30,677 nucleotides of DNA, from the NCBI GenBank assembly GCA_016185625.1, contig JACPND010000040.1, forward strand, positions 1 to 30,677, written 5' to 3'. Under the pieces are notes generated by a model. It did not search any database and was not told where the DNA came from. It worked only from the letters and a program-made list of their open reading frames with translations. Of this stretch, positions 8,039-9,298 are shown in pieces. The position numbers were made by a program, and so were the translations under genes. The first letter of the stretch is position 1. Each line of letters opens with the position of its first letter. This stretch comes from Candidatus Woesearchaeota archaeon (GTDB lineage Archaea; Nanobdellota; Nanobdellia; Woesearchaeales; GW2011-AR9).

Positions 8039-9298
8039 TCAGAATTTATATCCTATTCGTGCGCCGGCGACGGATTTCGCTGTAGTGAAATTGCCTCCCG
8101 CATGCCCCTGCACACAAACCGGACCATAGCACAGATCAATAGTTAATGCTCCGCCGTAACTTCTGCTTGTTTCGCTGGCCAAGTCCACTTTGCTGGCACT
8201 CAATTCCGGCCCGACGTTGGCAGCAGTCCTTGTCTGCAATTGTGCTTTTCTAGTTTTGGTCGTTTCAGTTTCCATTGTTCCCTGATATCCATTCACTACG
8301 GCGCCGAGCTGCAGTGAACCATTTTCCCCTTTCGCAAGCGGGAATTTAATCCCGACTCCCGCAAAGGCCTGTTTGTTCAAAGTTTCTTTGACGGATTCAT
8401 CCAGCGAAGTCGTTTGCTGATAGCCATGTCCAACTGATTCCGTACTCGGTGTTCCGGGAGTCTTGCTGGATTCAGTCACTCCTTCACCAAAAATAGAGCC
8501 GCCATTGATACAAGCTTGGAACGATTTACCATAGCACAATTCAGCGCCTGCGGTCTTCCCGTAATTAGAGAGGCCCAAAAACGGCGTCAGGGAGAGATAC
8601 TGAGAGAAACTGTCGTCTATCCGTCCTTGCTTTTGCCCTTCCGTTTCCGTCAGATTCGCAGCAACAGTTTGCTCCAGCAATTCCTTTCGGGCAGTATAGG
8701 AAGCTTCGGCAGCGGTACATGCCGTAAACAGCTCATTCGCTTTCGCGGCATTTGCTTGCACCAGCTTCAGGACTTCTCCACGTAAGGTTGCTTGCTCTGA
8801 CGCTGAAAGGGTATTAATATTATCTAATCTTCCCGCCAGCGTTTTATCCATTTCTTGCACGAAACCAACATACCCAGCACATCTGCCGTCAAAGTCTGTT
8901 TTCAACGTAGCGACAGCATCTAACGAAGGCTGCAAGGCTTTATACAATAATTGCATACTTTCCGGACCTTGCTCCCATTGTTCAAGTTGCGATTTCAATG
9001 AAGCATAGTCAGCAGCTTGCGTGGCGAATTGTTCTTGCACGGCAGTTAACGCTGTGTTCACTTGAGCTTTGAAAGATGTATAATCCGTGATAGTCCCAGA
9101 AACCAGCTCCTGCAAGGCCTGCAATGGTCGGACTGCACTTTTTTTCTTTGCCCCGGGCTTTGCCGCCGTGCTTGCCGAAGCAGCTGACCCACTTCCCACC
9201 GGCACGACCGTAACTGCTTGTGCCGATTGAGCCGCGGCATCCGCAGCACTCAATCCGATGACTAACCCTAATCCTGCAATATAATTTCGTAATGACAT
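8039..9298 (-). CDS. secreted protein: Ala/Ser-rich linker, coiled-coil region, C-terminal beta-barrel-like module
   Basis: I place the start at ATG 9298 ([24 protein letters not shown], a Sec-type signal), one nt after the stop of the upstream gene. The track's upstream extension to 9421 overlaps that gene. The middle is heptad-like. The last ~185 aa are Gly/aromatic-rich with alternating hydrophobic strands and end in ARIGYKF. Confidence 0.75.

Follow-up and report, generated by a model that had tools for sequence, protein, structure and literature searches.

Transmembrane β-barrels of the outer-membrane protein (OMP) class are a hallmark of diderm bacteria and of their organelle descendants. 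To our knowledge, archaea are regarded as being without them, and a lipid-embedded example would be the first in Archaea. The small barrels of bacterial outer membranes, those of OmpA/OprF-N, OmpX and Ail (PF13505), consist of eight antiparallel amphipathic strands arranged as a meander, and barrels of this class have no wide channel. The C-terminal domain of the protein described here, the product of gene B from an archaeal contig, is likewise predicted to be an eight-stranded antiparallel meander. According to our reading of the DSSP assignment, it shares with the small bacterial barrels the location of the termini and short turns on one side and of longer excursions on the other. Its strand ends, too, are enriched in aromatic residues. 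Its last residues, ARIGYKF, have the same aromatic-x-Phe form as the end of E. coli OmpX (AGVGYRF). The polar sheet of four protruding strands known from OmpX and Ail is also present in the model of the gene B protein, but there it is far longer, with strands of 26-31 residues. The bacterial systems differ from gene B in several other respects: gene B belongs to an archaeon for which neither an outer membrane nor BAM is known, significant sequence homology is lacking, and conserved cysteine pairs (probable disulfides) close two of the turns. In OmpA, moreover, the barrel is N-terminal to a peptidoglycan-binding domain, whereas in the gene B protein it follows a helical stalk; peptidoglycan is absent from archaea.

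The order of signal peptide, elongated helical stalk and C-terminal barrel is that of the tethers OmpM (Negativicutes) and SlpA (Deinococcus/Thermus), a layout that suits the spanning of an inter-membrane space, and OmpM1 is among the Foldseek matches of the gene B protein. In contrast to these tethers, no SLH domain was detected in the gene B protein, the strands number eight and not 16 or more, and the model of the stalk shows three helices of a single chain in place of a trimeric coiled coil. The YadA-type trimeric autotransporter adhesins and the inverse autotransporters follow a common logic, with a stalk and a C-terminal barrel. However, the YadA-type chain contributes four strands against the eight of gene B, and the latter has neither a YadA_anchor or autotransporter match in Pfam nor a passenger domain. 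The PopA-type outer-membrane barrels, which are small and eight-stranded like that of gene B, form lipid-trapping oligomers, and a tentative relative among DPANN archaea (Altiarchaeales) has been mentioned (PMC12228718); no sequence or fold match between PopA and the gene B protein was obtained.

Gene B occupies positions 8039..9298 on the minus strand of a 30.7-kb window (by which we mean the whole stretch of DNA analysed), and all features given below are on the same strand. The ORF, preceded by a ribosome-binding site, encodes a 419-aa secreted protein; its ATG is found 8 nt past a GGAGG sequence and 1 nt past the stop codon of gene A. The product is identical on five independent contigs. 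The segment 8042-8599, for which an earlier note on this DNA had proposed a porin-like β-barrel in an archaeal protein, corresponds to residues 234-419. The archaeal host named in that note was confirmed: the window contains a tRNA with an intron of ~50 nt in the anticodon loop, a ValRS of the archaeal type (PRK13208) and a member of the geranylgeranyl reductase family, and the ValRS is 66-76% identical to its counterparts in Woesearchaeota/Nanoarchaeota MAGs. Because of these features, the window is assigned from its gene content to Archaea and within them to Woesearchaeota (DPANN), a lineage for which we know of no cultured representative.

Gene B is part of a cassette with the order permease, membrane-anchored protein A, B, protein C and TM-anchored protein D. 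Gene A (9300..10526, 408 aa), the translationally coupled upstream partner of gene B, encodes a protein with a cytoplasmic N-domain, a single TM helix at approximately residues 194-216 (counted along the ORF of 413 codons), an external region of helices and a C-terminal domain that is small, conserved and contains Cys, and has no match in Pfam. Gene C (5980..8034), which starts 4 nt past the stop codon of gene B and is likewise translationally coupled to it, encodes a secreted protein of 682-684 aa with thrombospondin type-3 (Ca-binding) repeats and PKD/Big_9 Ig-like domains. Gene D (4619..5857), the last gene of the cassette, encodes an S-layer-like protein of 412 aa with a signal peptide, CARDB/NPCBM_assoc-like domains, a C-terminal TM anchor and a short charged tail. 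The gaps of only 1 nt between A and B and 4 nt between B and C indicate an operon. The surroundings of eight homologues were examined, and the A-B-C-D cassette was found with six of them, i.e. with every one for which the upstream flank was recovered; the remaining two are on contigs of ~3 kb that lack this flank. MAGs with this cassette include GCA_023265925.1 and GCA_053531095.1. On contigs from independent studies, the cassette sits among archaeal housekeeping genes (RtcA, aEF-1beta, Trm1 and GGR).

The gene B protein starts with a signal peptide and a linker, continues with a stalk of three helices and closes with an all-β C-terminal domain of 185 aa that ends in GYKF. The Sec-type signal peptide (residues 1-24; 9227..9298), read from the sequence as in the earlier note, has its hydrophobic core and A-x-A site kept in all full-length homologues. 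It is followed by a linker rich in Ala, Ser, Gly and Lys (residues 25-57; 9128..9226), modeled with low confidence (pLDDT <50), in which the family alignment revealed a small conserved motif, V-x-V-x-P-(V/G)-G, near the mature N-terminus. The stalk (residues 58-226; 8621..9127; pLDDT 63-86) had been described as a long coiled coil. AF2 instead models three long helices of 37-51 residues (73-109, 113-161 and 166-216 according to DSSP), which we read as a bundle, and the proposed stalk-plus-anchor architecture fits this model. In the family alignment, Cys194 of the stalk does not vary and most full-length members also have Cys140; the two may be linked by a disulfide. Besides the signal peptide, the protein has no TM helix, and on inspection of the sequence we saw no lipobox Cys and no sortase-type C-terminal signal.

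The predicted C-terminal β-barrel domain comprises residues 235-419 (8042..8596). Family-wide alternation, together with the AF2 model, defines eight amphipathic strands of 9-12 residues each (~10): strand 1, residues 235-244 (8567..8596); strand 2, residues 247-256 (8531..8560), ending in LCY; strand 3, residues 260-270 (8489..8521); strand 4, residues 313-321 (AGVGIKFPL; 8336..8362); strand 5, residues 327-338 (8285..8320); strand 6, residues 381-391 (8126..8158), again ending in LCY; strand 7, residues 394-402 (VCVQGHAGG; 8093..8119); and strand 8, residues 409-419 (8042..8074), for which comparison of the C-termini also indicated an end resembling a β-signal. All seven motifs quoted in the earlier note were located, at residues 252 (AELCYGKS), 262, 312, 328, 382, 394 and 409 (the C-terminus); the strand that it had missed is strand 1. 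The repeated LCYG-x(n)-C motif is also present as described, with the pairs C255/C263 and C390/C395, and disulfides Cys255-Cys263 and Cys390-Cys395 probably clamp two short turns.

Between the amphipathic strands, two polar β-hairpins form an extension. The first (residues 271-312; 8363..8488) carries a conserved tip motif, V-G-x-G-Y. The second (residues 339-380; 8159..8284) contains the best-conserved stretch of the family, with G340, TTT-x-T-R-x-x-Q-L-Q and G-x-x-V-G. In the AF2 model, the strands of the extension are 26-31 residues long, and one DSSP strand (293-323) covers 31 residues. The whole extension, which amounts to ~80 polar residues, is 26% hydrophobic.

When 1.84 billion representatives were scanned in full with HMMER, a small, unannotated family of ~16 members emerged, with no other architecture among the matches except for one ankyrin-repeat false positive. 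The word-indexed protein search, run with the single sequence, the full-length profile and the C-terminal profile, returned either the query alone or the query and the homologue P0008, and the relatives were recovered by the exhaustive HMMER scan only. In the alignment of 16 members, which are 19-31% identical to the gene B protein, the strict alternation in the strands is kept. One face of the strands consists to 84% of AVLIMFWY and to 1% of charged residues, and single columns swing from Gly to Leu to Phe. The other face contains 26% Gly, which is near-invariant, and 26% charged residues. Ala makes up 20% of the hydrophobic, presumed outward face, which makes it less hydrophobic than we would expect of a bacterial OMP. 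Aromatic residues occupy 33% of the columns at the stripe ends compared with 9% of those in the stripe middles. The aromatic-x-Phe end is a conserved feature of the family: Phe or Trp is terminal in 13 of the 16 members, whose position −3 is hydrophobic or aromatic. Related contigs yielded 682 ORF segments of >=200 aa, of which 18 have an aromatic-x-[FW] end, and 12 of these 18 are copies of the gene B family; outside the family, the frequency of such ends is ~1%. A chance motif was rejected, as the family members preserve the pattern at 19-31% identity to the gene B protein.

Residues 235-419 have a pLDDT of ~90 in the full-length AF2 model, and the domain modeled alone, from an input alignment of 9 sequences only, reached a pLDDT of 93.3 and a pTM of 0.73. 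The top 50 Foldseek matches in the PDB were all bacterial-type outer-membrane barrels, natural or designed, or β-pore-forming proteins; for both models, full-length and domain alone, lipocalin, avidin, YceI and sandwich folds were absent among these 50. The best match was the eight-stranded barrel of OprF-N (4rlc; TM-score 0.56), followed by OmpA, OmpX and Ail. The Foldseek probability was 1.00 for OmpA, Ail, OmpX and OprF, although the TM-scores for OmpA, OmpX and Ail were low (0.33-0.38) and the rmsd was large, in part owing to the long extension. Porins scored below the eight-stranded barrels (TM-score 0.14-0.21). The strand order in the AF2 model (DSSP), combined with the alternation in the family, points to a meander of eight antiparallel amphipathic strands that begins and ends on the same side. 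With high confidence, the last ~185 residues are predicted to form an amphipathic antiparallel β-barrel of the bacterial outer-membrane class, as the earlier note had suggested; in the structure-prediction check that it called for, a soluble sandwich or jelly-roll was not predicted. From the composition, the placement of the aromatic residues and the structural neighbours, we infer that the barrel is closed and that its hydrophobic face points outward into lipid.

The term 'porin-like' does not fit this model, because eight strands are characteristic of the OmpA/OmpX/Ail/OprF-N class, i.e. of small anchor or adhesin barrels and not of porins with 16-18 strands. A porin was rejected on strand number, since the 185 residues contain only eight membrane-length stripes, and the model is better described as an anchor-type barrel with a long polar extension of four strands.

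Searches of Pfam, NCBIfam and PDB sequences with the gene B protein and with the domain profile gave no significant match, and Pfam matches to the YceI or lipocalin families were not found. PF13505 (OMP_b-brl) was the top weak match in three members of the family (E = 1.2e-4, 1.7e-3 and 0.12), all under the gathering threshold; the best score was 22.8 bits (E = 1.2e-4) against a cut-off of 28.7, and the gene B protein itself had no match. One family member matched IAT_beta weakly (E = 0.039). Alignment of the family profile with E. coli OmpX by hhalign revealed no homology. In the literature on archaeal or DPANN β-barrel outer-membrane proteins, we found no description of the gene B family.

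Many DPANN archaea are thought to be unable to make lipids. Gene B could encode a soluble secreted barrel of eight strands, similar to lipocalins or YceI, with the hydrophobic face lining a cavity, which the stalk would display for the capture of host lipids. Alternation alone is silent on which face is inside, the Ala- and Leu-rich hydrophobic face could form a core or a cavity, the protein is secreted with no obvious membrane to occupy, and one of the genes with the highest expression in Woesearchaeota encodes a YceI family protein (PMC11606122). However, the Foldseek top 50 contained no soluble eight-stranded barrel, and the residue pattern runs contrary to that of a packed core, since Gly is near-invariant on the polar face and residues on the hydrophobic face swing in volume from Gly to Phe. 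The gathering of aromatic residues at both stripe ends and not in the middle, the conserved terminal Phe and the weak PF13505 matches also argue against a soluble barrel, which we regard as rather improbable. An unlikely, though slightly less improbable, explanation is that gene B encodes a subunit of an S-layer-like lattice or of a homo-oligomer, with the hydrophobic belt buried in contacts with itself, with C or with D, or trapping lipid in the manner of PopA, and with the hairpins joining a larger shared sheet or barrel. The operon with the Ig-like/TSP3 protein C, beside the TM-anchored, S-layer-like D, would suit such an assembly, as would the oligomerisation and lipid trapping of PopA-type barrels with their possible relative in Altiarchaeales. 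Monomeric barrels, moreover, do not usually have strands of 26-31 residues; such strands are known from oligomeric β-pores, which also occur among the Foldseek matches. On the other hand, AF2 builds a monomeric domain that accommodates every strand with confidence, and the best TM-score was obtained for a monomeric eight-stranded barrel.

The fold and the C-terminal motif are hallmarks of bacteria, and gene B might also be a recently transferred bacterial OMP gene, or part of a contaminant or chimeric contig, without a role in an archaeal envelope. The GC content of the 6-10 kb region (0.48-0.52) is slightly above that of the lowest stretches of the window, but other parts of the window have a similar GC content. 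The cassette is located amid archaeal housekeeping genes in JGI, ENA, NCBI and Logan assemblies, every HMMER match with recovered flanks sits in an archaeal cassette, and the homologue P0007 shares a MAG with one of the closest ValRS matches. An origin of this kind is thus highly improbable; bacterial contamination or a chimera was rejected, given that the synteny among archaeal genes is kept across independent assemblies.

The explanation that we favour, at slightly better than an even chance, is that gene B encodes a secreted envelope protein of Woesearchaeota whose last 185 residues would form a lipid-embedded eight-stranded barrel of the OmpA/OmpX/Ail/OprF-N type, held by protein A and anchoring in a second bilayer. 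The two termini would lie on one side of the barrel together with three short turns, of which two probably have a disulfide clamp; from the opposite side, strands 3-6 would run on as the long polar four-stranded β extension with its conserved tip. On the terminus side, the barrel would be joined to the three-helix stalk and the flexible linker. Protein A, anchored in the cytoplasmic membrane, may interact with protein B and hold it at the cell surface, and the barrel of B would serve as the distal membrane anchor in the second lipid bilayer, which could be either the archaeon's own outer membrane or the membrane of an attached host cell. Beyond that bilayer, the conserved extension would then offer a binding surface.

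We know of no documented outer membrane in Woesearchaeota. Cultivated DPANN archaea have been described as having a cytoplasmic membrane and an S-layer (bioRxiv 10.1101/2023.10.27.564410), which counts against the favoured explanation. So does the result that no gene for Omp85, BamA or a POTRA protein was found within the 30.7-kb window. The crossing of a bilayer by the ~80 polar residues of the extension would be hard to explain without an insertase, and this counts against a lipid-embedded barrel. In a broader proposal, a clade of groundwater Woesearchaeota would make a genuine barrel of the OMP class, embedded in lipid, and their conserved envelope module of four genes would have this barrel as its distal anchor. 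The barrel would sit in a second, outer membrane of the cells themselves or insert itself as an anchor into the membrane of the host. We put this forward tentatively, at somewhat less than an even chance.

If a conserved, vertically inherited DPANN family does have the OMP fold, it raises the question of whether some ultrasmall archaea have an outer membrane, and it bears on how episymbiotic archaea physically anchor to host cells and on the BAM-free assembly of such barrels. Should the barrel be soluble instead, gene B would still define an unannotated family of surface modules. Being small, well delimited and located in a four-gene cassette, the family is a concrete experimental target. Some related lineages keep D without A-B-C, which indicates that the envelope can do without this module.

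Gene B, which encodes the stalk-barrel protein, lies on the minus strand in an open reading frame spanning 8039-9421. Its start was assigned to the ATG at 9298, 1 nt past the stop of the gene upstream and with a GGAGG before it, so that the protein has 419 residues (8039-9298); five independent contigs of one sequencing project carry an identical gene call. The protein had no match in Pfam, NCBIfam or PDB sequences, and a word-indexed protein search recovered the query alone. When 1.84 billion representatives were scanned exhaustively with HMMER, eight real relatives emerged (E-values 2e-26 to 4e-4), and seven more members were obtained with the conserved neighbouring permease as bait in a metagenome collection, followed by HMM searches of the fetched loci. 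In the source databases these proteins are nameless or 'hypothetical protein', and literature searches found no earlier description of the family. The sole hint of OMP-like barrels in DPANN archaea that these searches gave is a brief remark on a possible PopA relative in Altiarchaeales (PMC12228718).

In full-length relatives a signal peptide, which carries an A-x-A site, is followed by a linker that varies, by a helical stretch in which one Cys is invariant and another is conserved in most members, and by a Gly/Thr/Ser-rich C-terminal domain of ~190 residues. All structural evidence is prediction, made with AlphaFold2 from a shallow alignment of nine sequences. In the full-length model residues 1-56 have low confidence, and three long helices (73-109, 113-161 and 166-216, pLDDT 63-86) take the place of the long coiled coil proposed in an earlier note, whose signal peptide is retained. 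The C-terminal domain is all-beta with pLDDT about 90 (mean pLDDT 93.3 and pTM 0.73 when modelled alone). The seven segments quoted in that note were all located within residues 252-419, and the motif LCYG-x(n)-C does occur twice. A further motif, V-x-V-x-P-(V/G)-G-x-G, is found just past the signal peptide (residues ~28-36; window 9128-9226, minus strand) and recurs in most family members, in a linker that cannot otherwise be aligned, possibly as a docking peptide.

For both models, the top 50 Foldseek matches in the PDB were exclusively transmembrane beta-barrels and beta-pore-forming proteins: OmpA, Ail, OmpX and OprF-N (probability 1.00 each), a designed 10-strand transmembrane barrel, FapF, OmpT, OmpG, autotransporter domains, pleurotolysin and complement pores. 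Lipocalin, avidin, YceI, jelly-roll and sandwich folds were all absent from these 50, so the soluble sandwich or jelly-roll that the earlier note had set against a barrel did not emerge. The N-terminal 8-strand barrel of OprF gave the best TM-score (0.56); scores for OmpA, OmpX and Ail were 0.33-0.38 with large rmsd, which we attribute largely to the unusually long strands of the model. That the barrel closes, and which way its side chains point, we infer from composition, aromatic placement and structural neighbours.

When the alignment of 16 members was mapped onto the modelled strands, eight stripes of 9-12 residues appeared (235-244, 247-256, 260-270, 313-321, 327-338, 381-391, 394-402 and 409-419). 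On one face of the stripes 84% of residues are hydrophobic, 1% are charged and 17% are aromatic, and aromatics account for 33% of stripe-end columns versus 9% of middle columns; the other side has 26% Gly, 26% charged and 29% polar residues, and several Gly are near-invariant. By the composition statistics of OMPs, these faces resemble lipid-facing and lumen-facing positions, respectively. Between stripes 3-4 and 5-6 the strands run ~20 residues further each, forming two polar hairpins (26% hydrophobic overall), the tips of which carry the best-conserved motifs of the family: V-G-x-G-Y, G340, TTT-x-T-R-x-x-Q-L-Q and G-x-x-V-G. This layout, in which a four-strand sheet protrudes from an 8-strand barrel, would be that of OmpX and Ail. 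Two Cys pairs stand in polar-face register across two of the three short turns and therefore probably form disulfides. By our reading of the model, both termini and the short turns (GKSF, GEN and GP) would lie on one side of the domain and the polar extension on the other.

The C-terminal residue is Phe or Trp in 13 of 16 members, in which position -3 is hydrophobic or aromatic. Aromatic-x-[FW] ends occur in ~1% of long ORFs outside the family on the same contigs. The C-terminal letters of the target (...AGARIGYKF) and of its homologue P0002 (...RGALGYRF) resemble those of E. coli OmpX (...IAGVGYRF). A search of PDB sequences with the domain profile found nothing, and hhalign of the family against OmpX was null. 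PF13505 (OMP_b-brl) was the top weak Pfam match in three members (E = 1.2e-4, 1.7e-3 and 0.12), all under the 28.7-bit gathering score; these matches are suggestive, but may stem from similar composition and not from common ancestry. The domain is predicted to look and work like the small anchor/adhesin barrels of Gram-negative outer membranes, and the label 'porin-like' given to it before does not apply.

Gene B belongs to a cassette, A-B-C-D (window 4619-10526, minus strand; also in L008, L089, L090, L091, L175 and a 290-kb JGI contig), which lies downstream of a Trp/Tyr-type permease and is usually followed by a geranylgeranyl reductase (GGR) homologue. Of the contigs of eight homologues inspected, those of P0008 and the fragment P0004 were too short for flanks; the other six all have the order permease, A, B, C, D, GGR homologue, with RtcA, aEF-1beta and Trm1 nearby in several. 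This conserved archaeal context rules out a contaminant or chimeric contig. Gene A (9300-10526) encodes a protein without a signal peptide, with a single mid-sequence transmembrane helix; its helical region is external, and its C-terminal domain is small, conserved and contains Cys. The product of gene C (5980-8034) is secreted and has thrombospondin type-3 Ca-binding repeats and PKD/Big_9 Ig-like domains. That of gene D (4619-5857) looks like an S-layer protein: besides a signal peptide it has CARDB/NPCBM_assoc-like domains, and its C-terminal transmembrane anchor is strongly conserved. This anchor and its tail (…GLEIALxVLVVLLVxxGLxxGFSRLRKDD…YY) are nearly invariant in all loci. In the window, the gaps between A and B (1 nt) and B and C (4 nt) indicate that A, B and C are almost certainly co-expressed.

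Apart from its signal peptide the gene B protein has no transmembrane helix, and no lipobox or sortase-type signal was noticed in it, so the barrel is the obvious candidate anchor; we lean towards a lipid-embedded barrel. Gly to Leu to Phe swings occur within single columns of the hydrophobic face; such tolerance fits a lipid-exposed surface and argues against a packed core. That the belt is instead buried in protein, in a lattice or oligomer, seems unlikely, and a soluble lipid-binding barrel slightly more so, given the lack of lipocalin, avidin or YceI folds among the top 50 matches. An artefact or recent transfer is highly improbable in view of the conserved cassette order and of the homologue P0007, whose MAG (JAHFSD01) also contains one of the closest valyl-tRNA synthetase (ValRS) matches.

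Since the stalk would lie on the terminus side and the co-transcribed A is membrane-anchored, the lipid-embedded barrel would most economically be the distal end of an envelope-spanning tether, inserted in a second bilayer. This bilayer may be either the archaeon's own outer membrane or the membrane of a host cell. A preprint describes cultivated DPANN archaea as having an S-layer and no outer membrane (bioRxiv 10.1101/2023.10.27.564410). The 30.7-kb window contains no insertase gene.

In related lineages (L096, L103 and L111) gene D and GGR homologues directly follow the permease region, without A-B-C. Elsewhere the position of gene B is taken by a divergent gene, B' (plus strand, from 11877 in L125, 5193 in L129, 7097 in L135, 4705 in L139 and 11855 in L141), with the C-terminus …LGYCPKQE and a different, non-helical N-domain. 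The hhalign match of B' to the B family was marginal (E = 0.013) and collinear over the last ~100 columns. Because A-B-C is missing in some lineages and B' occurs in others, the module looks like a variable accessory, not a core wall component, a pattern that fits a host-interaction role somewhat better. B' is preceded by a short gene whose product has a Cys/Pro-rich tail end. Additional divergent beta-rich proteins, undetected by the family HMM, are encoded at or near the same position on the plus strand (L120:6839-8140, from 2445 in L123 and from 13919 in L101); that of L120 has a TKTTTRQS motif and ends …VLLNYRF, and that of L123 matches PF13505 weakly (E = 1.7e-3).

The window comes from a DPANN archaeon. 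The archaeal origin assumed earlier agrees with a tRNA gene whose anticodon loop is interrupted by a ~50-nt intron (12499-12617, minus strand; 46 bits with the Rfam tRNA model, missed by ARAGORN), an archaeal-type ValRS (PRK13208) and a GGR family protein. The ValRS shares 66-76% identity with those of many Woesearchaeota/Nanoarchaeota MAGs, several labelled groundwater, ~55% with Altiarchaeota and <50% with anything else. Relatives 39-48% identical occur in bacterial MAGs (Eisenbacteria, Anaerolineales, Babeliales and Lentisphaerales; L052, L053, L055, L058, L062 and L078), which suggests inter-domain transfer of this ValRS type. The window also encodes a complete branched-chain amino-acid (Liv-type) ABC transporter (14672-20609, plus strand; binding protein, two permeases, two ATPases); between its binding-protein and permease genes lie two small ORFs without annotation and a gene for a nucleotidyltransferase. 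Toxin-antitoxin-like genes lie at 12658-13032 (-), 16414-16986 (+), 22918-23385 (-) and 715-1500 (-), and comprise one PIN-domain protein, two nucleotidyltransferases (NTP_transf_2/Polbeta) and one weak AbiEii-like match. The C-terminus of an IS66-family transposase is weakly matched at 21728-22069 (plus strand; E = 0.003), perhaps by a remnant.
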